DNA of 64,000 nt from a candidate division WOR-3 bacterium (GCA_026986775.1 JALSNX010000028.1:7609-71608); one strand, 5' to 3'. Counted from the stretch's first letter, positions 6,355 through 34,899 are shown. Notes: a model not told the origin generated them from the sequence alone. Program-made: numbers and translations.

Positions 6355-7239
6355 TTAAATATCAACACCGATTATTTTCCTTGCAAGAATACCTATGGCA
6401 AAGGATAAAAGAGCGACCCCGAAACTTATGAGGAACATTTCCCAGAAAGTTTTTTTGAAGTTTGCCCCCCTCACCACAGACACAAAAAATGTGAAAAAGT
6501 ATATTACAAAGAGTGCGGCAAAGAGTGTAAAGACAAATGCCACATAGTAGTGTTTAAATAAAAAGTACGGAATCACAATCAAAAAGACGGTAAAAATATA
6601 TGCTATTCCTGTATAAAATGACCCTTTTAAGGGATTTTTGTCACCCTCGTGCCTTCTTGAGAGATACTCAGAGGCAGCCATTGACAAAGAGGCTGCAATG
6701 CCCGTAATCACCCCGGCAAGCCCCACTAACTTTGTATTCCTGAGGGCAAAGGTAAGTCCGGCTATGGTTCCAGTTATCTCAACAAGGGCATCGTTTAGCC
6801 CCAGGACCATTGAGCCTATGTATTCTAATTTTTCTTCATTAAGCATATCAATAAGAGCGTTTTCATGCGTAACCTCATCCTGAATTATATGTTCTGCCTC
6901 TTCAATATGCCCCTTTATAGCTTCGTAAGACTTCTGGGCATCCTCCTCTCCCCCTTCCATGAGTTTAACAGCAAAGGTGATACCCATGATCCGTGCTATT
7001 ATGGTGTACAGAAAAACCCTGAGTCTATCGGGTTTTACATCCACACCGGTGTATTTTTTCCATATTTCATAGTGTGCCCTCTCATCCCTTGCTATTTTTT
7101 CAAGCACCTTTCTGTTTTCACCCTTTGCCATTTTTGCAAGTTTCAGATAAAAATAATGTTCTGTAATTTCATTTTTCTGAAATTCAATTATTTTTTTTCT
7201 AAGTCTCTCATCCATGTTGTTGCTCCTTTTTATTCCCAA
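6355..7239 (-). CDS. mbfA: Membrane-bound ferritin-like (erythrin) / VIT1-CCC1 iron transporter fusion (MbfA-like)
   Basis: 294 aa. N-terminal rubrerythrin/ferritin-like four-helix region (EHYFYLKLA, ERAHYEIW, EAEHIIQDE), then a C-terminal VIT1 family membrane domain with about 5 TM segments. Confidence 0.7.
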   Translation of the reverse strand: MGIKRSNNMDERLRKKIIEFQKNEITEHYFYLKLAKMAKGENRKVLEKIARDERAHYEIWKKYTGVDVKPDRLRVFLYTIIARIMGITFAVKLMEGGEEDAQKSYEAIKGHIEEAEHIIQDEVTHENALIDMLNEEKLEYIGSMVLGLNDALVEITGTIAGLTFALRNTKLVGLAGVITGIAASLSMAASEYLSRRHEGDKNPLKGSFYTGIAYIFTVFLIVIPYFLFKHYYVAFVFTLFAALFVIYFFTFFVSVVRGANFKKTFWEMFLISFGVALLSFAIGILARKIIGVDI

Positions 7240-9235
7240 GTCTATAAATCACGAATCTTTTATTTTCAAAAACTTTTCTTAATAAAGCCCTGCCACTTAT
7301 TTCAGTATCATCAATCTCCCTGTTGCAGATGATTTCGCGGGGCACAATGAAATAATCAATGTGATATTTATCAGAAAGGACTTCTTCTGGAAAATTTCCT
7401 TTACCCTCAAAGTATTCATCAATTTTCCGTGCTATTTTCATTCTTTTGTACCATTCTATTGCAAACCTTCTGTTAAACACACCTTTTCCGCCGTCAGTAA
7501 ACAGGACAAATACATTTCTTAATAACCTATTTCTTAGCCATACTCCTACAAGGTTATCTCTGTTCCAGACGTAAAAAACATCATTCTCATTGGTATGATC
7601 TTTTATCCATGAGAATACCTCATTTAATAACCACCTGTTTCTGTATTCTGGTAGGTAGCTTTTAATATTAACACTCCGCAAATATGAATTAAATATCTCC
7701 GTTTCATCTCTTAATATGCGGTTTATAGTATCGTCTTTCCCTTCACTATAATTACTCAAGGCATATAGACCGGACAAAAGAATCATTGAGGCAAGTAGAG
7801 TTTTGAAAGCAAAAAGGGAGTTCCTGACACTCCACAGATATGCGAACAATACACAGGCACTCAGAGCAATAACTAAATAAATTAATACTGGGACTGGCTT
7901 TTGAAGTAGAACGAGCCAGGATGAATAAAGAAATATGACATCTCCACTTAGTAAAATAAGGGAAATAAGCCATACCGGCCAATATCTTTTTTTTGAATAT
8001 AATAATAGACCTTTACTTTTTGTAAACACAAACAGTATACCCAGTATACCCGTCAATGGTAAAACCATAAACTCATATACAATATTAAAAATAACCAAAA
8101 TAGTGAGTAACCATAGAAAAATAATATTTTTCAAAAACAAATTGTTGATTTTAAATGAAATTATATTATAAAATGAACTTAAAAAGAGTATTAATAAAAT
8201 TACTCTAAAAAAAATAGTTACTCTGAGCAGTTGTAAAGACAATAATGGCTGAACGGGAAATAGAGAAGAAATAACCCCAATAATTGCACTTAATAATGAG
8301 AATATCACTAAATAGTGTATTTTCAATACATCTTTTTTTGCTAAACTCATTCTACCAGTATATGATAACATTTTGTATAAAATAGCATAAGAAATTATAC
8401 CCACTGGAAGCAATATAAGATATATGATATTATATTGCTGATCAAAGAACAAAAAAAGATAGCCACTCCTTAAGATACTTAGCCATTCACTGTCAACGAT
8501 TTTCAGATTCAAAATATGTACAGGAGTAAAACGATAATTCACTATAAAGTACAACGTCAATAAAATTATACTCCCAGCTAATACAATCAAAAATTTTGCT
8601 CTACTATCAAATTCACAAAATCTTGTCTTATAATAATAATAAAAAACTGCACCAATAATAGGTATAGGTGTAATAACATGAAATGCAAGTGCTACAAGTA
8701 GCATTATACCTGCCAGAACATACCGTTCCTTTCTGTAAAATGATATTGCTATTAGAGAAAGTGCAAAAGATATATTACGTGGAACAAGTCCATAGGGATT
8801 AAACACTCTAATGAAAGTAAATAAATATGGAGTTACAGGAGGGAGGAAAACAAGAGGTAAAAAGAGGCTGAATATTTTTCTTTTAGAAATCCAGTAAGAA
8901 AGGTCAAAAAGTCCCCAGAAGATTATGAACTTGGTGATAATATCCAAAATATTTATTATATTTAGTAGCTTAAGTTTAAATGCCCTGTGAATACCAATTA
9001 TTATATTATCGTATATAGTAAAATTTGTTTGTAAAAAAGTAGTGGTTAAATCGTGATTTAGCAACTTAGGATCAATCTTATGTATTATCTCAGGAAGATA
9101 ATGCCAGGCAAGGTCACCATATAAAGTGTAATGTCCGGGAAGAACAAGAAAACTAAACATCGTATAAATAGCAAAAATTAGTGACAGATAAATAAACCCT
9201 GTAGTGTTTTCTTCCAATTCTCTTAACTTCAACAT
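7208..9235 (-). CDS. Large polytopic membrane protein with C-terminal soluble domain (GT-C-like architecture; function unknown)
   Basis: 675 aa. About 12 predicted TM helices in the first roughly 440 aa, then a roughly 200-aa hydrophilic C-terminal domain. Strongly AT-rich codon usage (I/L/F/Y/N/K rich) compared with its neighbours. Start overlaps the stop of the upstream gene at 9235 (translational coupling). Confidence 0.6.
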   Translation of the reverse strand: MLKLRELEENTTGFIYLSLIFAIYTMFSFLVLPGHYTLYGDLAWHYLPEIIHKIDPKLLNHDLTTTFLQTNFTIYDNIIIGIHRAFKLKLLNIINILDIITKFIIFWGLFDLSYWISKRKIFSLFLPLVFLPPVTPYLFTFIRVFNPYGLVPRNISFALSLIAISFYRKERYVLAGIMLLVALAFHVITPIPIIGAVFYYYYKTRFCEFDSRAKFLIVLAGSIILLTLYFIVNYRFTPVHILNLKIVDSEWLSILRSGYLFLFFDQQYNIIYLILLPVGIISYAILYKMLSYTGRMSLAKKDVLKIHYLVIFSLLSAIIGVISSLFPVQPLLSLQLLRVTIFFRVILLILFLSSFYNIISFKINNLFLKNIIFLWLLTILVIFNIVYEFMVLPLTGILGILFVFTKSKGLLLYSKKRYWPVWLISLILLSGDVIFLYSSWLVLLQKPVPVLIYLVIALSACVLFAYLWSVRNSLFAFKTLLASMILLSGLYALSNYSEGKDDTINRILRDETEIFNSYLRSVNIKSYLPEYRNRWLLNEVFSWIKDHTNENDVFYVWNRDNLVGVWLRNRLLRNVFVLFTDGGKGVFNRRFAIEWYKRMKIARKIDEYFEGKGNFPEEVLSDKYHIDYFIVPREIICNREIDDTEISGRALLRKVFENKRFVIYRLGNKKEQQHG

Positions 9236-10089
9236 TATTCGTTTTTCCTATGATGCTCCACTAGATTGCTTGTGCTTTTTACTGTTCCATCACTGTCAAT
9301 ATAAAATCTCCCACCATAAGGGTCTTGAGGTATTTTTTTCATATACCCCTTTTGTTTAAGTTCATTTAAATCATACGGTAATCTGCCCTCTTTCCTTTTA
9401 AAGGCCTCCACTGCCCTCTCTATTTTAAGAACTCCAAGTAAAGCCTTTTTTCTCTTTAAAAGTTCCCTTTTCCAGTTTTCATCATCTGTATTCTTAATCT
9501 GACCGTCAAGAATATTCAGTGCTATTTCTGTTCTTCCCGAGGCGTAATAGAGTCTTGATGCAAGAGAGGCGAGAAAGGCGCTGCGTTTTAATTTTGCTGC
9601 CTCTGTCATATACTCAGCAGCAAGGTCATATTTCTTCATGAAGTAAAAATAATTAAAACTCAGAAGGAAATACCAGAACCAATCGCTTTTTCTGTATTTT
9701 ATGGCCCTTTTCAAGACCTTTTCCGCATCACTGTATCTTTTAAAATCCCACATCAGATTCAACGAAGCAATATAGTAAATGTCAAAATAATACGGATTTA
9801 AAGCACTTGCCACTCTGTAAGCCTTAAATACAACATCCCCCACCCATTCTGGAAAGTATGGATGCTGTTCAAGTATGGTCGCAAGAAATACACGTAAATC
9901 AAGAGTAACCCAGAAACTTCTTATTCCCTCATAGTCCAGGCTCATAATTTTTTCTGCCTCTGGTGAAAGGAGAAAAAGCCCTGCATTGGCCTTTTGAATC
10001 TTCCTGTATCGGGATATCTCAGGAACCATATAGGAATTTGTAGCAATCAGAAGACCTGCCAGCAAAAACCCCAAAAACACTCTCTTCAT
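9235..10089 (-). CDS. Secreted TPR-like protein with C-terminal GspG (T2SS pseudopilin)-like domain
   Basis: 284 aa. Hydrophobic N-terminal signal (MKRVFLGFLLAGLLIA) with no prepilin G|FTLIE site, and helical TPR-like repeats. The C-terminus KGYMKKIPQDPYGGRFYIDSDG matches the GspG/EpsG core motif GGYI[KR]RLP[KQ]DPWGxxYQ. Confidence 0.6.
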   Translation of the reverse strand: MKRVFLGFLLAGLLIATNSYMVPEISRYRKIQKANAGLFLLSPEAEKIMSLDYEGIRSFWVTLDLRVFLATILEQHPYFPEWVGDVVFKAYRVASALNPYYFDIYYIASLNLMWDFKRYSDAEKVLKRAIKYRKSDWFWYFLLSFNYFYFMKKYDLAAEYMTEAAKLKRSAFLASLASRLYYASGRTEIALNILDGQIKNTDDENWKRELLKRKKALLGVLKIERAVEAFKRKEGRLPYDLNELKQKGYMKKIPQDPYGGRFYIDSDGTVKSTSNLVEHHRKNE

Positions 10090-10859
10090 TTTATCTCTTT
10101 TTTCTGAAAAAAAAGAATGCTCAAAAGGATAAGAATAAAACTGTATATAAGCCCATATAGAAGGACAAGTATGTAATGTCCCGAACCGATTGAAAGCCCA
10201 TAAGAGAGCGATATCTTCATATCAAAGAAGGAAAAATTTGGAAAAATATAATACGCCGATTTTACAAGAAATTTTGAAATTAGAGGAATGTTCTCTGCTC
10301 GTTTTGTCTGAATAAATTGTACAGCATCGTCAAGATTGACACCAATCACGTAAATAAATAGTATTATGAAGGAAATAAGAACAGGCCGTTTACTGGCATT
10401 TATAAGAAAGTAAGCAAGAGAGGTAATAAGTAGCATCATAACCCATAAAAGTGGTAACTGAAGAAAAAGAACAGTTTTGAATTCTTTAAACAACAGGGCA
10501 TTGAGAATAACAAAGCCAGATAGCATGAGCGTGCTTGTAAAAATACCTGAAAAAACTATTCCGAAAACCCTTCCAAGGATATAATCCATTCTTTTCAGAG
10601 GCAGGGACAGCAGGTACTCAATGGTCTTTTTATTGAGGTCCTCTGTCAAAAAAGAAAAAATCAGGAAGAAGACAAGAACCAGAGTCAAAAACTCGGTGAC
10701 TGAAAGGGAATAGGTAAACATTACTTTTGATGCTTCAAACATGGTAAAATCATTTACAATGAAGTAAATAAAAAGCGAAAATAAATACAGAATCAATGTA
10801 CTGTAAAATGCCCTTTCTTTAACAGCCTCTTTAAGCGTGAGATACAGCATCCGCACCAT
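10086..10859 (-). CDS. ABC-2 family transporter permease
   Basis: 257 aa, about 6 TM helices, no soluble domain. Overlaps the ATPase gene upstream and the TPR gene downstream by 4-29 nt. Confidence 0.7.
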   Translation of the reverse strand: MVRMLYLTLKEAVKERAFYSTLILYLFSLFIYFIVNDFTMFEASKVMFTYSLSVTEFLTLVLVFFLIFSFLTEDLNKKTIEYLLSLPLKRMDYILGRVFGIVFSGIFTSTLMLSGFVILNALLFKEFKTVLFLQLPLLWVMMLLITSLAYFLINASKRPVLISFIILFIYVIGVNLDDAVQFIQTKRAENIPLISKFLVKSAYYIFPNFSFFDMKISLSYGLSIGSGHYILVLLYGLIYSFILILLSILFFQKKEIK

Positions 10860-11580
10860 TGTTCAGTGCCTCCACAAAAATATCTTCAAGGCGTTTATTT
10901 AAAAGCATGTTCCTTTCTATTTCCTTTATGATTTTACCGCGATTTAAAATGAGAATCCTGTCACACATATCCTCTATGTCTTCAAGAATGTGAGATGTAA
11001 AGAATACTGTTTTGCCTTTATTTTTATGTTCAATTATGAGTTCTTTTGCCATCTTTCTCCCCAGGGGGTCAAGCCCGGAAAGCGGCTCATCTAAAATCAC
11101 AAATTCTGGACTACCAAGGAACGCCTGTGCAAGTCCGAGCCTCTGGACCATACCTTTTGAGTATTTCCTTATGGATTTTTTTTCACTGCCCTGTAAACCC
11201 ACTCTAAAAATTAAAGATTCTATGGTGTCTTTAATTTTTTTACTGTTTACCCCTCTCAATCCTCCTACAAAACTCAAAAACTCAACTGCATTAAGATTTT
11301 CAAAAAACACAGGGTTTTCAGGAAGATATGCTATTCTTCTTTTGATTTTAACATCATGTGTATAAGATCCGAACACCCTAACATTACCCTTATCCGGAAA
11401 TAAAAGTCCGAGCATAATTTTTATAGTTGTACTCTTACCCTGCCCATTAAGCCCAACAAGACCCAGTATTTCTCCCTTCTTTACCCTGAAGGATATGCCA
11501 CTGAGTACCTTCTGCATGGGACCACCAATATCTTTTATCCTGAAGGATTTTTCCACCTCTTTAAACTCAACGATTTTCAT
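10831..11580 (-). CDS. ABC transporter ATP-binding protein (ABC-2 / DrrA-NatA type)
   Basis: 249 aa. Walker A GLNGQGKST, signature YSKGMVQRLGLAQA, Walker B FVILDEP, H-loop TSH. Confidence 0.9.
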   Translation of the reverse strand: MKIVEFKEVEKSFRIKDIGGPMQKVLSGISFRVKKGEILGLVGLNGQGKSTTIKIMLGLLFPDKGNVRVFGSYTHDVKIKRRIAYLPENPVFFENLNAVEFLSFVGGLRGVNSKKIKDTIESLIFRVGLQGSEKKSIRKYSKGMVQRLGLAQAFLGSPEFVILDEPLSGLDPLGRKMAKELIIEHKNKGKTVFFTSHILEDIEDMCDRILILNRGKIIKEIERNMLLNKRLEDIFVEALNNGADAVSHA

Positions 11581-11614
11581 CGCATTCTAAATTATAAGTT
11601 GAAAAATGTGGATA

Positions 11615-11644
11615 TAAAAAAAAGGGGGCCAGAGCCCCCTTTTT
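11615..11644 (-). terminator. Rho-independent (bidirectional) terminator downstream of pilA
   Basis: GGGGGC-cagA-GCCCCC hairpin (11624-11639), flanked by A8 on the plus strand (a U-tract on the minus strand) and T5. Confidence 0.6.
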
Positions 11645-11661
11645 AGCTTCTACAATATTTC

Positions 11662-12168
11662 TTACTGGAGTACCCAGTTGTTACCACTCGGACCTGCTAC
11701 ACCATTAAAGTCATCCTGCTGTGCGACAGAGGCAGGACAGTCACCATCCTGAAGTAGGACATTGACATTTCCGTCAGCCTTATCAAAGTAAATACCCTGC
11801 ACGTCAGAATCTGCACCATAATAGGTATCACCATTTACGTGTTTTGTCACCATGGTGTAACTCACATAATTAGCATCTGTATGTATGGTGATAGAAACCT
11901 TTGTAGAGAGGTTAAATGTCTCTGTATGTGTACCATCACTGATTGTTACCTGGTTAGGTGCAGAAACCACACCGCCAGTGTTGCCATAGCTCTGCCAGTC
12001 AGCAAAGAATGCTTCCTCTGTGGTTCTTGCGTTTCTCAGGTCACTCTCTGCAGAGCCATTGTATGCTCTTATTCTGTATTTTGCGAACTGCGGTATGGCT
12101 ATTGCAGCCAGGATCGCAATGATTGCGATCACGATGAGGAGTTCTATCAGTGTGAACCCTTTCCTCAT
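11662..12168 (-). CDS. pilA: Type IV pilin (major pilin, class III signal peptide)
   Basis: 168 aa. MRKGFTLIELLIVIAIIAILAAIAIP is the canonical prepilin leader, with cleavage after G, an N-methyl-Phe site, and E5. AGGAGGTA RBS about 7 nt upstream. Confidence 0.9.
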   Translation of the reverse strand: MRKGFTLIELLIVIAIIAILAAIAIPQFAKYRIRAYNGSAESDLRNARTTEEAFFADWQSYGNTGGVVSAPNQVTISDGTHTETFNLSTKVSITIHTDANYVSYTMVTKHVNGDTYYGADSDVQGIYFDKADGNVNVLLQDGDCPASVAQQDDFNGVAGPSGNNWVLQ

Positions 12169-12214
12169 GTTAATACCTCCTGTTTGTTTTTATTTTTCAC
12201 TTCACTAATTATAT

Positions 12215-12230
12215 AGCAATCTATATGCCA
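12215..12230 (-). promoter_or_regulatory. Candidate sigma-54 (RpoN) -24/-12 promoter for pilA
   Basis: The minus strand reads TGGCAT-ATAGA-TTGCT. This matches TGGCAC-N5-TTGCW with exact GG-N10-GC spacing, about 47 nt upstream of the pilA ATG. Confidence 0.5.
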
Positions 12231-12314
12231 AATCAAACCCTTATTTTAAAAGCAATTTTAAGGATAATTTCGCATTTTCCACTTGCAGGATGCAACTCGT
12301 ATTGCATTTTGCAA

Positions 12315-13670
12315 TCATTTAATAAGCACCCCCCTATTATAACCTATATAAACCCTGTTATTAAACTCTGCAACGGCTGTAATCCCTTTTACTTCAGGTT
12401 GACCGGGATCAAATGTCTTCCAGTTGCGATGAGCAAAATCGTACATAACAACTCTGTTTGAAGATGCGAGATACACCGAATTATCAGAAGCAACACCGCT
12501 ATGGATGGATAAAAGGTTAAAGGGACTCTTTATAAGATTAATCTTTTTATCTGAAATTATAAATAGTCCCCTCCTTGCCGGCACGTAAATGGCACTATAA
12601 CCCTGAACAATGTAATTGGTTAAAATGGGTTCGTTTTCATAATCAACCTCATTTAAAACAGTATCTTTCAGGGTATAGAGTTTTCCATTCGCAATTAGAT
12701 AAATATCATTAAAAGAGGCAGTGGCATATTTTATAGGCATGATAGAAGTAAAATAGCGCTTTACAGAACCATCATCACTAACTGTAAGTATGCAATTTCG
12801 GGTTGCTATAAAGTTATAGGTTTCGGTATTGAAAGCACAGACAGCATCACCACAGCCTCCATCAAAAGATGTGAAGAAATACGGGTCACTGAGTGTATAA
12901 AAGCCGTTTTTGTTTAAAAGTAAAACGCTTTCACCGATATATAGAAAATCAACAGGACTGAACCCATACTGAAAACAGTCTGTGGAGAGAGAATTTACAT
13001 AATCATCAGAGATCTTCGTCACTCCGGCGGCATGAAGCACGTAAAGGGTATCAAACACTACACCTAACCGATACACAGGAGGCTCTATATTTATATAGAC
13101 TCTCTTTTTCAACTTCTTCATTCTTCTGTCAAATACATATACCCCATTTGCTTTGGTACCAACATAGTCCAGATCATATCCTCCAGCATAACCTGTTGGC
13201 TCAGAAAAAACGTGACAGGGATTTTCATATGTCCTTGTTTTAAGGTACAGGGGCAGAGAACGGGGCTTTGTTAAAAACATGGTATCTATATAAATAGCGG
13301 GCGCAGGCTGGTTAAACTTTGACAGGTATCGCCTGGTACCGTTCTTGTAAAGAAGCATTATTATACCTGCTGAAAACCCCATACCTACAACGCCTCCAAC
13401 CATACCCACCTTTTTTAACGATTCAAAAAAAGGAGAATATACGTAAAGCATTCCGTCTTTTGTAACAAACGCAATCTCACCTGAACGGGAATCATAAGAG
13501 GCAAGACGAACCCATTTTGTGGCATAGGATGAAACAATACCCTCGTTGTTATCATAAACAAAAATCCCGCCATCTGTTGCAGCACAAAATCCTCTGCCTG
13601 TAAACTGCATAGAATTTACATGGGAGAAATCTGCAAGATACAACGTGGCAAATAAGAACAGTTTAATCAT
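12315..13670 (-). CDS. Secreted hypothetical protein, probable beta-propeller fold
   Basis: 451 aa. N-terminal hydrophobic signal, then recurring hydrophobic-Tyr-hydrophobic blade-like strands (VYVFD, LYVLH, FYTLSD, LYTLKD, VYLASS, VYIGY). No catalytic motifs recognised. Confidence 0.5.
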   Translation of the reverse strand: MIKLFLFATLYLADFSHVNSMQFTGRGFCAATDGGIFVYDNNEGIVSSYATKWVRLASYDSRSGEIAFVTKDGMLYVYSPFFESLKKVGMVGGVVGMGFSAGIIMLLYKNGTRRYLSKFNQPAPAIYIDTMFLTKPRSLPLYLKTRTYENPCHVFSEPTGYAGGYDLDYVGTKANGVYVFDRRMKKLKKRVYINIEPPVYRLGVVFDTLYVLHAAGVTKISDDYVNSLSTDCFQYGFSPVDFLYIGESVLLLNKNGFYTLSDPYFFTSFDGGCGDAVCAFNTETYNFIATRNCILTVSDDGSVKRYFTSIMPIKYATASFNDIYLIANGKLYTLKDTVLNEVDYENEPILTNYIVQGYSAIYVPARRGLFIISDKKINLIKSPFNLLSIHSGVASDNSVYLASSNRVVMYDFAHRNWKTFDPGQPEVKGITAVAEFNNRVYIGYNRGVLIK

Positions 13671-22197: not shown

Positions 22198-23238
22198 TTA
22201 AAAATCCACATCCACTTCTCGTAAATACCTGGCAGCCTCTTCTGGAATGGTGGGGTTGATATGAAGTCCGGAACCCCACTCAAAGCCTGCTATTTTTGTG
22301 ATCCTTGGGACCAATTCTATATGCCAGTGGTAGTCATACTCTATTGTTGACCAGTAATGCGGTCTTCCAGGACGTTCATGGGTGGAAGGTGCTGTATGCA
22401 AAATCATGTTAAATGGCGGGTCATTGAGAACGACCTTTATTCTGTAAAGCATCTGCTTCAGCGCATAGGCTACATGGTAAAGCTCATCATCATTTAAAAG
22501 TGCAAAATCGTGTAAATGCTTTTTGGGAATAAGCCATGTTTCAAAGGGAAAGGAGGAGGCATATGGTTCCCAGATTACAAAGTGTTCGTTTTCCCATACT
22601 ATCCTTTCTCCCAACATTAGTTCCTGAGCCAGTATATCACACATGAGACACCTTTCTTTTCTCTTAAAGTGTTCCTGAGAGGCGGTAAGCTCTGTTGTTA
22701 CCACGGTTGGCACCATGGGAGTTGCTATTAACTGAGAATGGGGATGTTCAAGAGATGCACCTGCTTCTCTGCCATGATTTTTAAAAACAAGAATGTATCT
22801 GAATCTGATGTCCTTTCTCAAATCACGTATCCTTTCCCTGTATGCAACAAGAACATCTTTTATTTCTTCAACACTCCTGTCAGCCATGTGTGAATCATGC
22901 TTGGGTGTCTCTATTATTACCTCATGAGCACCTATACCACTTACCTTGTCAAAAAGTCCTACTCCCTCTCTTTTAAACTCACCTTCTATTCTCAGTGCAG
23001 GGAATTTATTTGGCACAACTCTTACCTTCCAGCCTGAGGTATTGGGTTCTCTATCATTTTTGTCTGTTATCACAAAGATTTCTGGTGGGGTTTTGTCTTC
23101 ATGACCATAGCAAAAAGGGCATAAAGCTCCCTTTTTCTTCTCTTCTTTAGGTATTTTGAAATCATGAGGCCTTCTACCTCTTTCCGTGGCTATAATAGTC
23201 CACCTTATCCTTAAAGGATCATATCTTATTTCTGGCAT
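22198..23238 (-). CDS. GalT-like hexose-1-phosphate nucleotidyltransferase (HIT superfamily, class I GalT family)
   Basis: 346 aa. Zn-binding CPFCxGHE, active site HPHSQ (compare GalT HPHGQ), duplicated half-barrel. Confidence 0.75.
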   Translation of the reverse strand: MPEIRYDPLRIRWTIIATERGRRPHDFKIPKEEKKKGALCPFCYGHEDKTPPEIFVITDKNDREPNTSGWKVRVVPNKFPALRIEGEFKREGVGLFDKVSGIGAHEVIIETPKHDSHMADRSVEEIKDVLVAYRERIRDLRKDIRFRYILVFKNHGREAGASLEHPHSQLIATPMVPTVVTTELTASQEHFKRKERCLMCDILAQELMLGERIVWENEHFVIWEPYASSFPFETWLIPKKHLHDFALLNDDELYHVAYALKQMLYRIKVVLNDPPFNMILHTAPSTHERPGRPHYWSTIEYDYHWHIELVPRITKIAGFEWGSGLHINPTIPEEAARYLREVDVDF

Positions 23239-23239
23239 A

Positions 23240-25279
23240 CTATTCCTCCATTTTCAAACTCACGTTAAATATCTTGTGTTTAAGCGGATAGGTGAATATA
23301 ATACTGCTTCCCTGATACACCATATCCATTCCAGACTCTGACTGGGAAAGAGTGTAAACAGGGTAAACCCATATTCCACATTCCTCTGAACACACAAATT
23401 CTAATTTAATACCAAAATACTCATCTTCTATAACAAGCATATCACCTTTTCCTTCAAACATCTCCGCATTACCATGGTACTCTGCATCTTTTAGCCTGAA
23501 TACAGGTTTTACAAAATGGAGATTGAACTCAACCCCTGAAAGTAAAGTGAATGGTACCCTGCCTTTTGTATTAAGGGTAAAACTCACTGTATTTCCATCA
23601 AGTACAACTTTCTTGGCAACCTCAAATGGATAATTTCCGTTCTCTGTATATATTCCTCCATTTCTGTGAAGATAGATGGTTCTCTTTGCTCTGTCTGTTC
23701 TCAGGTTATACGGCATGTTAACAAAATCTCCCAGTTCTCTGAATTTCATATATCTCAGCATAGAAACGGTAGTATCAGGTGGTAATATATGGAAAAGCAG
23801 GGACCTTCGCTCATACCAGTCATAAACCATTTCCTTTTTGACACGAGAAGACACATACCGTTTAATCTCATGGATTGATTTTGCCTCATCCTGTTTTCCT
23901 TCTTCTTTTACTTCAACATCCTTGTGGTAGTGTTCAAATCTACGCGTAAGTGTGTCCTGAAAATTGATGCCCTTTTCCATGGAGGAAAGTTCATAAATAC
24001 TTCCATCTTTTGCTGTAATGCCTACAGAAAGCTTGCTATTTTTCATATAAACCTCATCATAGCCATCTGCATCCATGTCATCACGCACAAAAATGTCACG
24101 AGAGACCATCTTTTCCGCTGTAAGGAGATTTGAATACACTGCCCTGCGAAGATGTGGAAGGTAAAGCCCACCAAAGACACCATGCCAGTAAGCATCGTTG
24201 GCCTGTCCCCTCATAAGATGCAAAAGTGCCCTGCCCTTTTTGCTTCCCTCATATGAGTTGACCAGATTGGAAACAAAAATCATCTTTTTGTGCATTATGT
24301 TTGCTTCTGTATATTTTACCAGAAAATTCTTCCAGATTCCACCCTTTATAAACATCCTGTTGGCTTCAAACATCCTGTTTTTTCTCAGATAGTCCACAAA
24401 ATCAGTGAATTTAACGGCCACATCTGATGGTAACGACCATTCTCCCATCTCAAAATACGACGACGAGGGAAGATACACCCTGCCCAATGGTTTTCTTTTT
24501 TTCATATATCCTGAATACGTATCCGTCTCTACAAAGTCTGATGCCAGAACCAGCTCAATAAACTCCTTTAACCATCCTTTTTCATAAACCCACTCAAATG
24601 TGCCAGGCCATACGCCAAACTTTTCACCATCATCAAAAATGCATGCAGCATCAGAGGGGGCATTATCCCTTACCCATTTAAGATAATCCATAATTTCCTC
24701 TGGCTTTTTAAAGGGAATGAGATACCTGAGAGTCTGATTAATGGGAAATACTCCTATCTTTTTACCTTCAGACTCCGTATAGTAGTAGCCGAATAGATTC
24801 CTGTCTGATATACCTGCCTGAAGGAAATGGTAATCATCCACAACAACATAGGAAAGCCCTATATCAACAAGCGTCTTCAAAACATCACTTTCAAAAACCC
24901 TTTCCGTAAGCCAGAGTCCTGAAGGTCTTGTTCCAAATTTCTTTTTTATGTATGAAAGTGATTTTTTTATTTGATGACGTCTATCCATCTCCGGAATGGC
25001 AGCAAGAACTGGCTCATAAAACCCGCTTATTACAATCTCAATCTGATTTTTTGCCAGCATTTCTCCAATTATATCCATAAACTCTGGATGCTTGTCCTCA
25101 AAAAACTCCCACAGAGCTCCTGTAAAATGAACGGTGAATTTAAAATCAGGATATTTTCCGGCCACTTCCATGAACGGAAGGTAACTCTTCCTGTAGGCTT
25201 CTTCAAAAACAAAATCAAAATTGCCTACTGGCTGATGGGAATGAAGCCCAAGAAGAAGCGTGACCTTTTTATTCTTCAT
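23240..25279 (-). CDS. Glycoside hydrolase family 57 alpha-glucan enzyme (amylase / 4-alpha-glucanotransferase type)
   Basis: 679 aa. N-terminal GLHSHQPVGNF (the GH57 HQP motif) and conserved GH57 regions. Confidence 0.8.
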   Translation of the reverse strand: MKNKKVTLLLGLHSHQPVGNFDFVFEEAYRKSYLPFMEVAGKYPDFKFTVHFTGALWEFFEDKHPEFMDIIGEMLAKNQIEIVISGFYEPVLAAIPEMDRRHQIKKSLSYIKKKFGTRPSGLWLTERVFESDVLKTLVDIGLSYVVVDDYHFLQAGISDRNLFGYYYTESEGKKIGVFPINQTLRYLIPFKKPEEIMDYLKWVRDNAPSDAACIFDDGEKFGVWPGTFEWVYEKGWLKEFIELVLASDFVETDTYSGYMKKRKPLGRVYLPSSSYFEMGEWSLPSDVAVKFTDFVDYLRKNRMFEANRMFIKGGIWKNFLVKYTEANIMHKKMIFVSNLVNSYEGSKKGRALLHLMRGQANDAYWHGVFGGLYLPHLRRAVYSNLLTAEKMVSRDIFVRDDMDADGYDEVYMKNSKLSVGITAKDGSIYELSSMEKGINFQDTLTRRFEHYHKDVEVKEEGKQDEAKSIHEIKRYVSSRVKKEMVYDWYERRSLLFHILPPDTTVSMLRYMKFRELGDFVNMPYNLRTDRAKRTIYLHRNGGIYTENGNYPFEVAKKVVLDGNTVSFTLNTKGRVPFTLLSGVEFNLHFVKPVFRLKDAEYHGNAEMFEGKGDMLVIEDEYFGIKLEFVCSEECGIWVYPVYTLSQSESGMDMVYQGSSIIFTYPLKHKIFNVSLKMEE

Positions 25280-25291
25280 ATCTTACCTCCT

Positions 25292-27355
25292 TCAGACAAT
25301 CCAGTTTTCCTCAACATCCTCCCGGGATATTAGTCGCAAAATATAGAACCCGCTTGCGGGAAATCTCTCCTGAACAATCTCTTTTACAATAATTTTTATA
25401 GCAAGTGCTACAGTTGTATCATCAAGCATAACCTTGCCAAGTGGGACAGAGCACTCAAATACTTTACCCTTCACACAATCTCCGTATTTTCCTTCAACAA
25501 TTTCAAATATTTTGTGCCCCTCAATATCAAAAAACTCTATTCCAATAATACTTTCCATACTTTCAAGAGATTTTTCGCCTTCCACCCTCAGATAAAGATT
25601 ATTCTCATCTCTTCCAAAGAAGAGTCTTGTAAGCGAGGATTTACCCCTTTGCATTACTCCACCCTGTCCGCTTTCAAGGTCAATAACACCAGCACCCAGC
25701 CATTCAAAGAAGTTGGTTACTTTACCATCAAGAGTAGGAGAAATAAAATCACTCTCCTCCTCTATTACATATGTTCTCTTTCTTGTCACGCGTACTGGTA
25801 CATCAAGAAATCCCGGTACATTTCTGCCCAATTTTCTGTAAATCTCTTTTAGATGCTCTCTAAATAGTACATCAAATGTCTCAGCATAAAACGTGGGATT
25901 GTCATCTCCATACCACCAGAACCAGTCCGAACCTTCAGCATATATAAGCTCCATCTCTGCATGACTTTGCTCTTTTAAACTATCTTTGACTTCGTTCTTT
26001 ACGCGAACCAGGTATTCCCATGCTTTGTTTTTTTCAGGATGTCCTATCCATGTGGTGAAATCTGACCTTATCCATGACCCCGGGTGTAACCTCACAAGTT
26101 TTTTACTTTCATGGTTCAGTAAATCTTCTCCCGTCACAAACTCAACCATACCTGAAGCTTCAAGTGTTGAAAATAGTTTCTTCAAAAAGGGTACTCCACC
26201 GTCTTTATAGTTTTCCCAGGGGTTTTCTCCATCAAGAATAATACTTACAACCTCTCCGCCATGCAACACAATGTTTCTTATCCTGTCCATAAAATAAGAA
26301 ATTGCTTTTTCCTTACTCAATCTGTATAAATCAAAGCCTATGCTATCAGACAGTTCCCTATCTCTAAATAAAATCCTGACACCATTAAACTCATATATTT
26401 TGTAAATTTCTGAGGGAAAGTCTCCATTGCGGATTACGTATCCCAGAGATTTTTCCAGTATACCCTCATCAGTACCCACCCACTTTACATCATGCACCCG
26501 GGCAAGATTAATAAATTTTTCAGAAACACCACCCTCAGCAGGCCACATCCCTGAAGGTCTTTTTTTGAATACGGACTCTATGTAATCCATACCAAGTAAA
26601 AGTTGCCTCTCTGCATTTTTCGGGAACCTCCACCTTGTTTCAGGGAGACGAGTATATGGATTTGAAACTTCTGCACAGGATGAGTCTATAAGTAAAGGTG
26701 AGATCGGATGCGCATAGGGTGTAAATGTTATTTCTATCTTGCCTTCTTCCTGCAATTTTCTATAAAGAGGCACAATACGAGAAAGTAAAGTTTTATGCAC
26801 TTCTAAAACCACAGTCTTGTCTTCCTCGCTGTATCCGTAATCTTTTCTTTTTAACTCACCAAGCTCTGGAAACTCTTTTATTGCATAAACAGAGGTGTTA
26901 TAAAGATAAAACAGAATCTGAAGGTCCCTTATCTCACTCGTGGTAAACCTGCTAACCTTTTTTTCTATATCATAGGGACTACCCCTCTTGTCCAGAAGAT
27001 ACAAATAACGCTTTGAGTTTTTGAGCTTCGTGTTGTAATTTAAAGAAAAGAAGTTTTTCAGAATAAATACTCTCTCTTCAAAAGAAAGTGATTCAGCATC
27101 CTTTTTGAAATGTTGTAGAAACACATCCTCAAAATCGTTATTTATATAATCGTTGAGCTGTTCAATGAGGCTCGGAACAAAATTAATGGTGAGCTTTATG
27201 TTATCAATGTCTTCTATCACACGTGCCACATCGTAATATTCTCTTATTCCGTGCATATAAACCCATGGCATGAGATAAACATTCTTTCCGTCCTTTCTTA
27301 TACGATAAACGGGCTGGTGCATATGAAACAAAAACAGAATCTTTACTTTATCCAT
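25292..27355 (-). CDS. Glycoside hydrolase family 57 protein, second paralog (branching-enzyme/amylase-like)
   Basis: 687 aa. FHMHQPVYR GH57 signature at the N-terminus. Confidence 0.75.
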   Translation of the reverse strand: MDKVKILFLFHMHQPVYRIRKDGKNVYLMPWVYMHGIREYYDVARVIEDIDNIKLTINFVPSLIEQLNDYINNDFEDVFLQHFKKDAESLSFEERVFILKNFFSLNYNTKLKNSKRYLYLLDKRGSPYDIEKKVSRFTTSEIRDLQILFYLYNTSVYAIKEFPELGELKRKDYGYSEEDKTVVLEVHKTLLSRIVPLYRKLQEEGKIEITFTPYAHPISPLLIDSSCAEVSNPYTRLPETRWRFPKNAERQLLLGMDYIESVFKKRPSGMWPAEGGVSEKFINLARVHDVKWVGTDEGILEKSLGYVIRNGDFPSEIYKIYEFNGVRILFRDRELSDSIGFDLYRLSKEKAISYFMDRIRNIVLHGGEVVSIILDGENPWENYKDGGVPFLKKLFSTLEASGMVEFVTGEDLLNHESKKLVRLHPGSWIRSDFTTWIGHPEKNKAWEYLVRVKNEVKDSLKEQSHAEMELIYAEGSDWFWWYGDDNPTFYAETFDVLFREHLKEIYRKLGRNVPGFLDVPVRVTRKRTYVIEEESDFISPTLDGKVTNFFEWLGAGVIDLESGQGGVMQRGKSSLTRLFFGRDENNLYLRVEGEKSLESMESIIGIEFFDIEGHKIFEIVEGKYGDCVKGKVFECSVPLGKVMLDDTTVALAIKIIVKEIVQERFPASGFYILRLISREDVEENWIV

Positions 27356-29844
27356 TGCTTTATTCTTTTCACATACTCCCTGTGAAGTTTCTCAGCCTCA
27401 TCTCTGTTCAGTGCTTCCACGAACACATGAAAGTAAGGCTCAAATTCATCTGGATGAATCATCACCCACGAATCTTTATACACTATTTTGATACCATCAA
27501 GGAATGAGGCTTCCTCTCCATGAGCAAGTTCACTCATCTTTCTCATAACAGTTCCTTTTCTATCCCACGGACAGGCGACCTTTTCATGTATAAAATATGG
27601 CCTCTTTAAATCACTGTAAAAGCCATTGATATCCTTTCCAACTCCTGCAAGCATTTCCAGTATTTTACCGATTGCAAACATACCATCTTCTGCTATCTGA
27701 AACTCCGGAAAAATAAAGGCGCCATTCCCCGATGCTACAAGTTTCATATCCGGTGTCTTTGCCTCCTGCGCCATAACTCTTGGATTTGTTGCAATAGGTC
27801 TTACTTCAAAGCCCATTCTCTCGCCTTCTTCAAACACAATTTTAGGAGTATAGGGTGGCACTGCAATGACACCATGTTCGCCATAGGAAAGGGTAAGCAT
27901 GGAGACAAAAACCAGAAGGTCAATACCCTCTATAACATTGCCTCTGTTATCCACAACAATAATCTTCTCGCCATTGGGATAAAGATAAAATCCGACGTCA
28001 AATTTGAGAGATTTTACTATCTTCCCAAGTTCTATGAGCCTCTTTTTGATAACCTCTTCACTCTTAGAAATCTTCCTGTAATCACTGTAAGAATTGAGTG
28101 TAACTACATCCTCAACAAGCTCCTCTATCATGTACAAAAATCTTGGGGCGGTTGTTCCATTTGAGAGGTCAAGAACAATTCTAAACTTCCGTTGCCTTAT
28201 TAGCTCTGTGTTAAGAGCCTTTTTAAATCCCTCCTCATAAAAATCCCAGAGCCTTGTTTCAAAGCTAATACTTCCCACCTCATAATGATGGGCACGCCTG
28301 AAGTCTTCCCTGTAATAAATTCTTTCTATGGATTTGGCTTCAGAACCTGATATATCAACACCATTAGAGTCATAGAAATAGATTTCTGTGGATTCAGGCT
28401 CAGTGGGAGACTGTTTGAAGTAAACGCCTCCCATCTCACCAAAAGTTTGAAGTTTATATCTTAAAACAGGTATTGGAATGTTCTGTGCGTCCTTTACCTG
28501 CACTCCCGTGGACGCAAGTCCACCCATAAATGACCTTCTAAGCATTCTTGAGGCAGGATGTGCATCCCTTCCCAGTAAGATGGTTGCATTTCTCGGTAAC
28601 ACTGTTCCGTATGCAGAACCAAGTTTGGTGGTCATTTCAGGCGTAAGCTCAATATTTGTAAGCCCCTTTATAAATGAACCCTGAAACAGTGCCTTTTTCC
28701 ATTTCTCACCCCATACAAGGTTAAAAGATACAACTGAACCCTGCTCTATCTTCTTACTCGGCCATATTTTTATCCCCTCTTTAACAACAGACTCCCTTCC
28801 TATTCTGCACTCATCCCCTATAACCGCACCCTCCTGAATATGAACATTCTCCTCAACATAGACTCCATTCATTAAAACTGCTTTCTCAATTTTTGTGGCC
28901 TTTTTGAGATAAACATTATCCCAGAGTATTGCACCATCAAGAACAACATCGTCCTCTATTACACAATTATTGCCTATAACCGAGAGCCTTATCTTGGAGT
29001 TTTTGCCGATCCTGGTATTATTACCTATGATAATGGTACCCTGAAAGTTTACATTCTTTCCCAAAACCACATCCTCCCCGATACGAACATCCCTTCCTAC
29101 AAGGTCAAGCTTCTTTCCCGGCACTTCAACGTTAACCATACCATTTAAAATATCGTAATTTGCCAGTCTGTATGAATCAGGGTCTCCTATATCCCTCCAG
29201 TACCCTTCTGATATAAAACCAAACAACCTTTTCTTTTCATTCAGAAGTGCTGGGTAGAGATTCTTTGAAAAATCATATTCCTCATCCTGTGGTATCCTTT
29301 CAATCATCTCGTCGGTAAGAAGGTAAATACCGGTATTTATGGTATCAGAAAATACCTCTCCCCATGTGGGCTTTTCCAGAAACTTAATTATTCTACCCTC
29401 TTCATCTGTAATAACTATACCAAATTGAAGTGGATTATCCACTCTGGTAAGACCGATGGTAACATCAGCAGATTTTTTGTTGTGAAAATCAAGCATTTCT
29501 GAAAGTTCAAAGTCAGTGAGAAGGTCACCACTTATGATAAGATAAAGGTCATCAGGAAATCTATCCCTTGCAAACCTTACAGCACCAGCGGTTCCAAGGT
29601 CTTTATTTGGTATAACATAGTTTATCCTCACTCCGAAATCACTTCCATCGCCGAAAAAGTTCTTGATATATTCTGGGTGATAATAAAGGAGCATAACGAT
29701 ATCAGTTATACCATGTCTTCTAAGAAGTTTCACTATATGCTCCAGGACAGGACGATTTACAAGAGGAAGCATGGGTTTTGGAATATTTACGGTAAGGGGC
29801 CTTATTCTGGTCCCGAACCCACCTGCCATTACAAAGGCTTTCAT
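27343..29844 (-). CDS. Sugar-1-phosphate nucleotidyltransferase (left-handed beta-helix) fused to a degenerate phosphohexomutase-like domain
   Basis: 833 aa. N-terminus MAGGFGTRIRPLT (GGxGTRxxPLT), hexapeptide-repeat region, and a C-terminal alpha-D-phosphohexomutase fold in which all four catalytic loops are altered (QSPTEP, YPNGEK, SGNGAF, HPDEFEP). Confidence 0.75.
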   Translation of the reverse strand: MKAFVMAGGFGTRIRPLTVNIPKPMLPLVNRPVLEHIVKLLRRHGITDIVMLLYYHPEYIKNFFGDGSDFGVRINYVIPNKDLGTAGAVRFARDRFPDDLYLIISGDLLTDFELSEMLDFHNKKSADVTIGLTRVDNPLQFGIVITDEEGRIIKFLEKPTWGEVFSDTINTGIYLLTDEMIERIPQDEEYDFSKNLYPALLNEKKRLFGFISEGYWRDIGDPDSYRLANYDILNGMVNVEVPGKKLDLVGRDVRIGEDVVLGKNVNFQGTIIIGNNTRIGKNSKIRLSVIGNNCVIEDDVVLDGAILWDNVYLKKATKIEKAVLMNGVYVEENVHIQEGAVIGDECRIGRESVVKEGIKIWPSKKIEQGSVVSFNLVWGEKWKKALFQGSFIKGLTNIELTPEMTTKLGSAYGTVLPRNATILLGRDAHPASRMLRRSFMGGLASTGVQVKDAQNIPIPVLRYKLQTFGEMGGVYFKQSPTEPESTEIYFYDSNGVDISGSEAKSIERIYYREDFRRAHHYEVGSISFETRLWDFYEEGFKKALNTELIRQRKFRIVLDLSNGTTAPRFLYMIEELVEDVVTLNSYSDYRKISKSEEVIKKRLIELGKIVKSLKFDVGFYLYPNGEKIIVVDNRGNVIEGIDLLVFVSMLTLSYGEHGVIAVPPYTPKIVFEEGERMGFEVRPIATNPRVMAQEAKTPDMKLVASGNGAFIFPEFQIAEDGMFAIGKILEMLAGVGKDINGFYSDLKRPYFIHEKVACPWDRKGTVMRKMSELAHGEEASFLDGIKIVYKDSWVMIHPDEFEPYFHVFVEALNRDEAEKLHREYVKRIKQWIK

Positions 29845-33717: not shown

Positions 33718-34899
33718 TCAGAAATGTCTATTTTTTACTCCAGCACGTGCTCTGAAAAGCTCAATCATCTCTTTTAAACTTCTTAATGACGCATCGGGGT
33801 CTTTTAGAGCAAGTTTTGTATGATTTAGAACCCTTAAAACCCAGAGTTTAAAAAGAAGCTTTCTCCATTCTTCAATGGTAGGGTCAAAATGTTTCATAAA
33901 TATCTCATAGGACTCATACCATAGTGTCGGATTCATAAAATCGTAATCTCCATCAGAAATTGCTTTTGATACCCTTTCTCTTATATGGGAGGGGAAGTAC
34001 TCTAAAAGCAATGACTTCATCTTCTCGGTCCACCCCTCTTTAAACTCTCTTATAGTACCATCTATATCAAAGGCTATACGGGTCTTGTATTCCTGTGGAA
34101 CCTCCACTGTATTGTCTTTATGGTAAACCATTCTATCCGTATCTATCCTGAGGTTTTTATTTTCCCGTATAAAATCAAAGCACTCCACAGTCATGGTTTC
34201 AAGGTCACTGAGTTTGCCATAGAGTTTATGGTGCTTTCCCTCTTTAATATAAACCTCATACAGTTTAACCCCATATCTTGCAAAAGATATAGTCAAAGCT
34301 GTATCTATGGACCAGTCACTCGCCTCTAAAACAATTTTATCTTTTGCCAGTCGTTCTGCAACTTCTCGTGTAAACCCCAGTTCTCCTCCAAGTGGCTGCT
34401 CTATATCGGGAAGAATTGTATGTGGCCACACATACGCAAAGCCGGTTCTCGTAATATTCCATGTAACCATTGCATCTGTATAGGCTCTCGGGAAAAAGCA
34501 TCTTGATACATGGTATCCTTCATCAAGCCTAAGCTGTACCCTATCAATCCATGTTCTGGAAAAGGACTTTATATCAGCATCGTAAAAGTGCAGAAATTTC
34601 TCTTTTCCTCTCTCAACAAAATATTGAATTGCAGTATTCATCCCATCACCCTTACCCGCTCGTCTTTTTGTTCCAAGTCTCTTCTGTATTATAAGTGATA
34701 TTCTGCTTTTTTCCTCTGCTTTAAGCGTGCTTATAAAATCAGATATACCTCTGTAAGTCTCATTTTCATTATAACCTACCAGAATTACATGCCCCACTCT
34801 TTCATGAGAAAGAGCCTCTTTTATATTATTTTTGAAATCTTCCACGTTTTCTTTTTTGAAGGGAAAACAAACGGCAATGTCTTTTTGCCCCTTTTCCAT
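33718..34899 (-). CDS. GT-A retaining glycosyltransferase resembling glycosyl-3-phosphoglycerate synthases (GpgS/MpgS type)
   Basis: 393 aa. AVCFPFKKEN (compare GpgS VVIPALDEE), RRAGKGDGMNTA (compare PGKGEALWRS), HFYDADI (DxD). Confidence 0.45.
   Translation of the reverse strand: MEKGQKDIAVCFPFKKENVEDFKNNIKEALSHERVGHVILVGYNENETYRGISDFISTLKAEEKSRISLIIQKRLGTKRRAGKGDGMNTAIQYFVERGKEKFLHFYDADIKSFSRTWIDRVQLRLDEGYHVSRCFFPRAYTDAMVTWNITRTGFAYVWPHTILPDIEQPLGGELGFTREVAERLAKDKIVLEASDWSIDTALTISFARYGVKLYEVYIKEGKHHKLYGKLSDLETMTVECFDFIRENKNLRIDTDRMVYHKDNTVEVPQEYKTRIAFDIDGTIREFKEGWTEKMKSLLLEYFPSHIRERVSKAISDGDYDFMNPTLWYESYEIFMKHFDPTIEEWRKLLFKLWVLRVLNHTKLALKDPDASLRSLKEMIELFRARAGVKNRHF

Follow-up and report, generated by a model that had tools for sequence, protein, structure and literature searches.

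A pilA-linked, PilGHI-like transporter triad and a recently inserted gene for a putative GT-C glycosyltransferase in a candidate division WOR-3 bacterium

Results

Layout of the pilA region

The DNA analysed here (the window) is a stretch of 64,000 nucleotides from a candidate division WOR-3 bacterium (GCA_026986775.1 JALSNX010000028.1:7609-71608). On its minus strand lies a type IVa pilin gene, pilA, followed by genes for an ABC ATPase, an ABC-2 permease, a 284-residue accessory protein and a 675-residue polytopic membrane protein with the predicted fold of a GT-C glycosyltransferase. The first three genes after pilA, hereafter named the triad, form an old, conserved, pilin-linked module present in at least six phyla-level groups, whereas the GT-C gene is a recent insertion. 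The region contains the following features.

12215..12230, minus strand: sigma-54-type promoter element of pilA, TGGCAT-N5-TTGCT (TGGCATATAGATTGCT), 47 nt 5' of the pilA start codon
11662..12168, minus strand: pilA, major type IVa pilin, 168 residues; N_methyl; short leader MRKG/FTLIELL, Glu5
11619..11644, minus strand: intrinsic terminator 3' of pilA; 11-bp stem (6 G-C pairs), then a T-run
10831..11580, minus strand: PilH-like ABC ATPase, 249 residues; ABC_tran E 1.3e-27
10086..10859, minus strand: PilI-like ABC-2 permease, 257 residues; weak ABC2_membrane_3 / ABC2_membrane_2 matches
9235..10089, minus strand: triad accessory protein ("PilG slot"), 284 residues; N-terminal hydrophobic helix, predicted tetratricopeptide repeat (TPR)-like superhelix, GspG-core-like C-terminus
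7208..9235, minus strand: predicted GT-C-fold glycosyltransferase, 675 residues, divergent DUF6798 member; ~13 transmembrane helices, AglB-like C-terminal periplasmic domain
6355..7215, minus strand: VIT1/rubrerythrin-type iron transporter gene (Pfam VIT1 E 6e-14), outside the module and at the downstream edge of the insertion

The ATPase and permease genes overlap by 29 nt, the permease and 284-residue genes by 4 nt, and the 284- and 675-residue genes by 1 nt; the true start of the VIT1 gene is the ATG at 7215. A sequence-only reading of the window had given the minus-strand order as promoter, pilA, terminator and four overlapping genes. This order was confirmed, with all five open reading frames (ORFs) present.

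For comparison, 62 related loci, designated by L numbers, were collected from neighbourhood look-ups and a scan of species-representative genomes, and were analysed locally with hidden Markov models. The pattern TGGCAY-N5-TTGCW occurs once in the 64-kb window, where 0.17 matches are expected by chance. This same strict motif recurs 40-130 bp 5' of pilA across several phyla, in at least 12 related loci that include L001, L004, L007, L026, L029, L030, L047, L051, L054, L059 and L068, and a PilS/PilR sigma-54 activator pair stands beside the pilA promoter motif in many of the motif-bearing loci. Being the sole match in the window and recurring in related loci, the sigma-54-type promoter read from the sequence is upheld. 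The pilin itself matches Pfam N_methyl (E 1e-8), IV_pilin_GFxxxE above cut-off and, over its N-terminal 60 residues, NCBIfam typeIV_PilA_Myxo (E 6.6e-15, below the model cut-off).

The terminator 3' of pilA is indeed strong, with a folding energy of -17.7 kcal/mol (z-score -2.2) for its 11-bp stem. A sigma-70-like sequence, TTTATA-16-TATAAT, lies just 3' of it at 11618..11591. The terminator probably acts as an attenuator, fixing the amount of pilin relative to that of the accessory proteins. Searches with PilT, PilC, PilS and PilR queries (phmmer) and with a pilin motif found no further pil genes in the window, and Pfam scans of 20 further window ORFs found no GtrA, polyprenyl-phosphate GT2 or pil genes. 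Directly 5' of pilA lies a 451-residue ORF (12315-13670, minus strand) with a hydrophobic N-terminus, for which Pfam and NCBIfam gave no match. This ORF is kept at the same position in L001, L002, L066 and L067, and pilC-pilS-pilR are found there in L068, a 68% relative.

A conserved triad linked to pilin genes

Of 57 non-redundant triad loci, completeness was scored in the 50 where the contig reaches far enough, and pilin linkage in the 42 "informative" loci whose upstream sequence extends for 1 kb or more. In the species-representative genomes, 52 loci carry the 284-residue family. The ATPase, the permease and the 284-residue homolog are adjacent in 50/50 loci. Their order is ATPase-permease-TPR in 45/50 and permease-TPR-ATPase in 5/50, and the permease gene always adjoins the 284-residue gene. 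A same-strand pilin gene lies upstream of the triad within 700 bp in 25/42 loci and within 3 kb in 30/42, the latter figure supporting the earlier view that linkage to pilA is not random. In 36/42, some type IV pilus gene is present.

The triad stands directly 3' of pilA in WOR-3, in Desulfobacula and in a JGI metagenome contig, with pilB/T/C/S/R clusters in the WOR-3 and JGI loci. The layout pilT-pilC-pilS-pilR-pilA-triad is found in WOR-3 (L004, L007, L068) and in Desulfuromonadales (L019, L026, L029, L055). In Desulfurobacteriaceae (L046, L051, L054, L059), tandem pilins precede the triad, and in Desulfobacula L006 a short PilA-N-type pilin and a second small gene do so. The genes directly 3' of the triad include pilD (L026, Peptidase_A24), pilins (L007, L055) and PilT-like ATPases (L056, L057, L068). 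According to the sequence records, the triad taxa are Nitrospirota, Desulfuromonadales/Geobacter relatives, Desulfobacterales, Aquificota, Desulfurobacteriaceae and WOR-3.

Two side observations concern these loci. A ~70-residue pilin of the Geobacter PilA-N type lies 5' of the triad in many Desulfobacterales and Desulfuromonadales loci (L006:5710-6365, L019:5779-5994, L029:5785-5997, L026:7166-7378), and is followed by either a small second gene or a ~2.2-kb gap before the ATPase. In addition, L030, from a record labelled Pedobacter sp., shows pilT-pilC-pilS-pilR, a short pilA, the triad and Wzm/Wzt in a Desulfuromonadales-type arrangement that is unexpected for Bacteroidota; the contig may be mis-binned or horizontally acquired.

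The best NCBIfam models for the ATPase belong to the GldA/DrrA class, all below their equivalog cut-offs, and GldA scores highest for the window ATPase (E 9e-55, below cut-off). The window permease matches ABC2_membrane_3 (E 1.8e-3), and its orthologs in L006, L067 and L068 match ABC2_membrane_2. The GldA/GldF/GldG gliding-motility transporter of Bacteroidota, which combines an ATPase, an ABC-2 permease and a membrane-anchored accessory protein and serves a surface-motility apparatus, resembles the triad in architecture only. Unlike the ATPase, the window permease and accessory protein match no Gld models.

The accessory protein carries a GspG-like domain on a TPR array

The 284-residue family comprises 83 clusters by single-sequence search and at least 366 by profile, all named hypothetical or TPR. 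An AlphaFold2 model built from 43 homologs (predicted local distance difference test score, pLDDT, 92) predicts a continuous N-terminal hydrophobic helix (residues 2-36), a TPR-like superhelix (43-200) and, at the C-terminus, a long helix (204-234), a short helix and a beta hairpin. Fold searches with the whole model returned TPR proteins only. On the other hand, a profile of the C-terminal ~80 residues matches the GspG structures 29jd, 3g20, 1t92 and 5wda (E 9e-6 to 1e-4). This alignment runs through the alpha1C helix and sets the family-invariant P-x-DPYGG-x-Y on the P-x-DPWG-x-Y of GspG. Hence, the C-terminus is pseudopilin-like. Pfam T2SSG is matched by 17/28 members of the family.

The last ~80 residues thus share with GspG (Pfam T2SSG, TIGR01710) the alpha1C helix, the P-DPWG-x-Y loop and the strands. 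However, the N-terminus (MKRVFLGFLLAGLLIATNSY) has no N_methyl match, and no class III signal peptide motif, G/F(M)xxxE, appears in the family alignment. The class III signal peptide, the hydrophobic alpha1N with Phe1 and Glu5, and the N-methylation motif of GspG are therefore lacking; instead, the domain sits C-terminal to a TPR array and to an N-terminal helix of another kind. Without a class III signal peptide and polymerisation helix, the 284-residue protein is not a pilin and cannot polymerise. From profile and model, it is best described as a predicted domain relative of GspG, rather than a member of that family, with a putative pilin head on a TPR arm. Its N-terminal helix may serve either as a membrane anchor or as a signal peptide. 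Of the earlier description, a secreted TPR protein with a GspG-core C-terminus, the TPR and GspG core (E ~1e-5) thus stand, whereas "secreted" is not established. The combination of a TPR array and a pseudopilin head appears undescribed in the literature searched.

Relation to the PilGHI proteins of Myxococcus xanthus

In Myxococcus xanthus, PilGHI are encoded directly 3' of pilA (Wu et al. 1998, as cited in PMC3724824 and PMC3546991), and pilA-pilG-pilH-pilI form one operon in which PilH is the ABC ATPase, PilI the ABC-2 permease and PilG is annotated as an "ABC transporter accessory factor" (PMC3546991). Deletions of pilG, pilH or pilI are listed among the pil deletions that lack type IV pili, and they produce no exopolysaccharide (EPS) (PMC3724824). 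A pilB Walker A allele suppresses this EPS defect (PMC3724824), so PilGHI is unlikely to be an EPS exporter in M. xanthus.

The region resembles this system in several respects. The triad follows pilA on the same strand, with sigma-54/PilR-type pilin regulation, and consists of an ABC ATPase, a ~250-residue ABC-2 permease and an accessory protein without an assigned domain. In some triad relatives, pilD lies 3' and pilB/T/C/S/R lie 5' of pilA, and pilA-triad-pilD in L026 matches M. xanthus pilA-pilGHI-pilD in composition. In gene composition and in position after pilA, M. xanthus pilGHI is indeed the right precedent for the triad, as the sequence-only reading had proposed. The differences are that the order here is ATPase-permease-accessory, whereas it is accessory-ATPase-permease in M. 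xanthus, that a strong terminator separates pilA from the triad, and that the window lacks further pil machinery genes in the vicinity.

A second precedent is found in Geobacter sulfurreducens. The survey of Sharma et al. had already scored pilGHI-like genes in Geobacter-type clusters (PMC6060248), and the three-gene part of the region is of this PilGHI type, so this part is not an undescribed system. In G. sulfurreducens, PilA is followed by two hypothetical proteins, PilI (ABC2_membrane_2), "PilG" (no domain) and PilH (ABC_tran), after which come UbiA, GT2, Wzm and Wzt (PMC6060248 supplement). Two Nitrospirota loci (L009:6246-9671, L013:9081-12501) carry a permease, the TPR/GspG-like 284-residue homolog, an ATPase and a UbiA-family prenyltransferase gene, which is the G. 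sulfurreducens order at the start of its xap cluster. The 284-residue family therefore occupies the PilG slot. On the domain composition of PilG, the literature searched gives only "no domain" and "accessory factor".

The fourth gene encodes a predicted GT-C protein of the DUF6798 family

The 675-residue protein has no direct match above cut-off in the Pfam and NCBIfam libraries, and a word-index search with it found only a ~92% ortholog. Exhaustive HMMER searching (E <= 1e-3) yielded 113 proteins, namely the ortholog P0001 (~92-93%) and 112 distant relatives with 23-37% identity, mostly 500-650 residues long. Pfam DUF6798 (PF20604) is found at the C-terminus in 38/46 aligned members (best E 6e-13), and the window protein itself matches it weakly (E 0.043, 14 bits versus a cut-off of 26.9). 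A profile of the family searched against the Protein Data Bank (PDB) returned nothing.

An AlphaFold model (predicted template modelling score 0.80, mean pLDDT 74) predicts ~13 transmembrane helices, with a confident N-terminal module and C-terminal domain. Its structural likenesses include Pmt2, AftD, ALG9, DPY19, ArnT and PglB, as well as the GT-C-like GPI-transamidase subunits PIGU and GAB1. The GT-C-like nature suggested earlier is thus borne out by a GT-C fold in the model, and not an unrelated transporter fold. D41 is invariant and D62 near-invariant in the first periplasmic loop after the first transmembrane helix (46 homologs of 17-29% identity, and P0001). Both residues are at the usual site of GT-C catalytic acids, for which they are candidates. 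Two further motifs, C-x-W-I-K-x-N-T and F-N-R-x-Y-A-x-E-W, are conserved towards the C-terminus.

The protein shares with STT3/AglB/PglB (GT-C class A) a C-terminal periplasmic globular domain after ~13 transmembrane helices, but it has neither the WWDYG motif nor a Pfam STT3 match, and no sequence-level similarity to any solved structure. It differs from TfpO/PilO/PglL in lacking a Wzy_C or O-antigen ligase match in Pfam and NCBIfam. TfpW, the GT-C pilin arabinosyltransferase whose gene directly follows pilA in Pseudomonas aeruginosa Pa5196/PA7 (bioRxiv 10.1101/2020.04.19.049825), is likewise a polytopic GT-C-type enzyme, of 646 residues compared with 675 here. However, the C-terminal domain of the window protein is AglB-like alpha/beta and not TPR, GD41...D62 is conserved in periplasmic loop 1 in place of a DDX doublet, three genes separate it from pilA, with which it is not kept in relatives, and no D-arabinofuranose biosynthesis genes were seen. 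Overall, the model identifies a GT-C protein outside the oligosaccharyltransferase (OST), TfpO and TfpW families, and sequence and model together point to a divergent member of the uncharacterised DUF6798 GT-C family, with an OST-like layout. Its sugar donor is most likely polyprenyl-phosphate-linked. In L061 and L062, GtrA and GT2 genes adjoin its relatives.

The GT-C gene is a recent single-ORF insertion

The GT-C gene lies 3' of the triad only in L001-L003, which represent the lineage of the window (~92% identity), and is absent from all other triad loci. It is AT-rich, with a G+C content of 0.31 and a third-codon-position G+C content (GC3) of 0.27, as compared with GC3 of 0.34-0.43 in neighbouring genes. 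In L067, which is syntenic on both sides (75% identity in the 284-residue protein), the 284-residue gene is followed directly by VIT1 and FTHFS, without a GT-C gene. Compared with L067, the window loses homology at ~9296 and regains it at 7216; therefore, the extra DNA is a single ORF. The GT-C gene is also missing from L066 (76%), likewise fully syntenic, where a 143-bp spacer with the last ~40 nt of VIT1 follows the triad, and from L068 (68%), where a PilT-like gene does. Hence, it is a recent, compositionally foreign single-ORF insertion between the 284-residue gene and VIT1.

The view of the four genes as one conserved cassette, put forward in the sequence-only reading, is rejected on this synteny: what is kept next to pilin genes is the three-gene triad, and the GT-C gene is not. 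A separate observation concerns L066. Its spacer between the 284-residue gene and FTHFS (L066:8843-8986) retains the end of VIT1 (GIIARKISGIDI*) and is the scar of a VIT1 deletion. The absence of the GT-C gene in L066 was accordingly rejected as the ancestral state, the ancestral arrangement being that of L067.

The genomic contexts of the DUF6798 family were sampled at fifteen independent loci (L060-L065, L069-L078), several of them short; a degenerate DNA pattern for loci of the family gave 10 true matches. The contexts are of polysaccharide type, with Wzx flippase, GT2, GtrA and UDP-sugar dehydrogenases or epimerases, and also DegT, NeuB, a deacetylase and Wzz. No pilin is found in the available DNA at 13 of the other 14 sampled loci, several of which are short. 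The only other pilin-adjacent case is L061 (5353-10956), in which a DUF6798 GT-C homolog of 624 residues stands head-to-head with the gene of a 176-residue pilin. GtrA, an FAD amine-oxidase-type gene and a GT2 gene lie on either side of it, and the edge of the locus holds a T2SSF gene.

Polytopic genes also follow the triad in Desulfobacterales

In Desulfobacterales, a ~580-residue polytopic protein is encoded after the triad (L006:8907-10661, L028:10758-12512, L033:10804-12684, L052:10754-12484, L053:5843-7588, L058:2696-4444). It shows an invariant NMDD after the first transmembrane helix, an ESVAWISGRSD block and C-terminal TPRs, the architecture of the pilin arabinosyltransferase TfpW. BLASTP found no similarity between the 675-residue protein and the 584-residue Desulfobacula neighbour, and hhalign found no detectable homology between the two families (probability 0.5%). 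Searched against the PDB, a profile of the ~580-residue family matched TPRs only, with no GT-C match.

Other features of the window

Outside the pilA region, the window encodes two type IX secretion components, namely a PorV-like protein (41618-42715, minus strand) and a 972-residue Peptidase_C25 protein that carries CARDB as well as a Por_Secre_tail sorting domain (49467-52385, minus strand). It also encodes BamA (34920-37166) and LptF/G (47396-48535). The organism is therefore a diderm with a type IX secretion system. A run of carbohydrate genes (22198-29844 and 33718-34899, both minus strand) contains two GH57 enzymes, a galactose-1-phosphate uridylyltransferase-like gene, an 833-residue fusion of sugar-nucleotidyltransferase and phosphoglucomutase/phosphomannomutase, and a mannosylglycerate synthase gene, which would fit the compatible-solute and glycogen metabolism of a thermophile. 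Almost all window genes of at least 150 residues are on the minus strand, 31916-33706 being the only clear plus-strand gene. The plus-strand cumulative GC skew, profiled over 20 kb, declines steadily, the pattern expected of a single replichore whose genes are strongly biased to one strand.

Discussion

We consider it fairly probable that the region is built of two layers, an old one made of pilA and a PilGHI-type triad, and a recent one made of an inserted GT-C gene. In the first layer, a sigma-54-driven gene for the major type IVa pilin would be followed by a terminator that attenuates transcription and by an accessory ABC system of the PilGHI type. In this system, the ATPase and permease would form a type-V/ABC-2-like transporter. 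The accessory protein would be anchored in the inner membrane by its single N-terminal helix, placing the TPR array and the leaderless pseudopilin head in the periplasm, where it could couple the transporter to the pilus system. The pseudopilin head may dock on pilin heads or on a pilin-binding platform while the TPR array binds a machinery partner, and ATP hydrolysis would then support the delivery or maintenance of a membrane pilin pool. The domain content of the triad and its close linkage to pilA, together with the M. xanthus phenotypes, lead us to infer such a pilin-handling mechanism. In the second layer, the GT-C protein most likely takes sugar from a polyprenyl-phosphate-linked donor and attaches it to an acceptor in the periplasm. 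In the lineage of the window, its gene is co-transcribed with pilus accessory genes, which makes pilin a candidate acceptor, not the default one.

Several observations weigh against this interpretation. For the triad, the available DNA shows no type IV pilus gene in 6/42 informative loci (4 Aquificaceae, 2 Desulfuromonadales), and no pilin lies near the five permease-TPR-ATPase loci, only two of which (L009 and L013) extend far enough. For the accessory protein, homology to M. xanthus PilG (MXAN_5782) is deduced from position only. In Anaeromyxobacter and Vulgatibacter, PilI is accompanied not only by a "PilG" but also by a distinct TPR_19 protein, so that PilG and the 284-residue family may be different proteins. 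The likeness to GspG is limited to alpha1C, the first loop and the strands, and the window protein scores 15.8-20.7 bits against T2SSG, below the gathering cut-off of 21. By locus-tag numbering, the G. sulfurreducens "PilH" is xapD (GSU1501), which is required for extracellular polysaccharide in that organism (PMC3495685, PMC5585712); a glycan or lipid substrate is for this reason a real alternative. As for the GT-C protein, the middle of the model is poorly resolved (pLDDT 50-65 over residues 380-530), and the scanned parts of the window yielded no genes for donor synthesis (GT2, GtrA).

The entire region could instead be, as the sequence-only reading suggested, a module for pilin glycosylation, in which the GT-C protein would glycosylate PilA in the periplasm as TfpW does in group IV strains of P. 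aeruginosa, with the triad supplying or presenting the lipid-linked donor or the pilin. The GT-C fold with near-invariant Asp residues in periplasmic loop 1, the translational coupling of its gene to a pilus accessory operon, and TfpW, a GT-C protein encoded directly after pilA (bioRxiv 10.1101/2020.04.19.049825), are all consistent with this. So are the distant L061 member, head-to-head with a pilin gene and beside GtrA, GT2 and T2SSF, and the TfpW-architecture protein after the triad in Desulfobacterales, which suggests that such enzymes have been recruited there repeatedly. However, syntenic relatives retain pilA and the triad but lack the GT-C gene, which is also missing from every other triad locus. 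Since the triad lacks any GT-C gene in most lineages, it cannot be a dedicated glycosylation helper. The polysaccharide-like surroundings, without pilin, of 13/14 other sampled DUF6798 loci (several short) and the lack of donor-synthesis genes nearby in the scanned parts of the window also argue against this explanation, which we regard as unlikely.

Alternatively, the triad would export a lipid-linked glycan or polysaccharide, like the Geobacter xap system, the GT-C protein would decorate this glycan, and the adjacency to pilA would reflect co-regulation of pili and matrix rather than a part in building pili. In G. sulfurreducens, the genes labelled PilI/PilG/PilH stand at the head of GSU1498-1508, annotated as the extracellular anchoring polysaccharide locus, for which xapD (GSU1501) is required (PMC3495685; PMC5585712). 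In Desulfuromonadales and Nitrospirota, UbiA, a Wzm-like permease with its ATPase and a MurJ-type flippase are found 3' of the triad. In addition, the ATPase finds its closest likeness in exporters of the GldA/DrrA/Wzt kind, and the relatives of the GT-C protein are found in Wzx/GT2/UDP-sugar loci. Against these stand the suppression of the M. xanthus EPS defect by the pilB Walker A allele, PilGHI not being the EPS exporter there (PMC3724824), and a linkage that is specifically to a pilin gene, under a pilin promoter, in at least six phyla-level groups. Moreover, pilins, PilD or PilT lie directly 3' of the triad in several loci, and the pseudopilin-like head points to a protein partner in the pilus system. 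We therefore hold surface-glycan export to be improbable for this locus.

A more far-reaching proposal joins two claims: that the 284-residue family is the PilG-type factor, whose leaderless pseudopilin head would let the transporter grip pilin or its platform, and that DUF6798 is a new bacterial OST-like GT-C family recruited for pilin glycosylation in the lineage of the window and in L061. On the first claim, the triad would be no Myxococcus oddity; type IVa pili of at least six phyla-level groups would share it as a conserved device that handles pilin at the expense of ATP. We would not expect both claims to hold together.

PilGHI has reportedly been known since 1998 to be required for Myxococcus pili, its substrate and mechanism still being unknown, and to our knowledge it is usually treated as a deltaproteobacterial peculiarity. 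The kind itself is thus not new. What is new here is its wider distribution, with pilA-linked triads in Nitrospirota, Aquificota, Desulfurobacteriaceae, WOR-3, Desulfobacterota and Desulfuromonadota, and the predicted domain make-up of the accessory protein. A TPR array with a DPYGG pseudopilin head, devoid of a polymerisation helix, leads to a hypothesis that can be tested by mutation, in which the transporter is coupled to pilin or platform through the head. On the glycosylation side, the DUF6798 proteins emerge as an uncharacterised putative GT-C family with an OST-like layout. Glycosyltransferase-like genes that recur after the triad, namely the window GT-C gene and those of the Desulfobacterales TfpW-like proteins, together with the pilin-adjacent L061 homolog, hint that glycosylation at pilin loci may be wider than in Pseudomonas and Neisseria.

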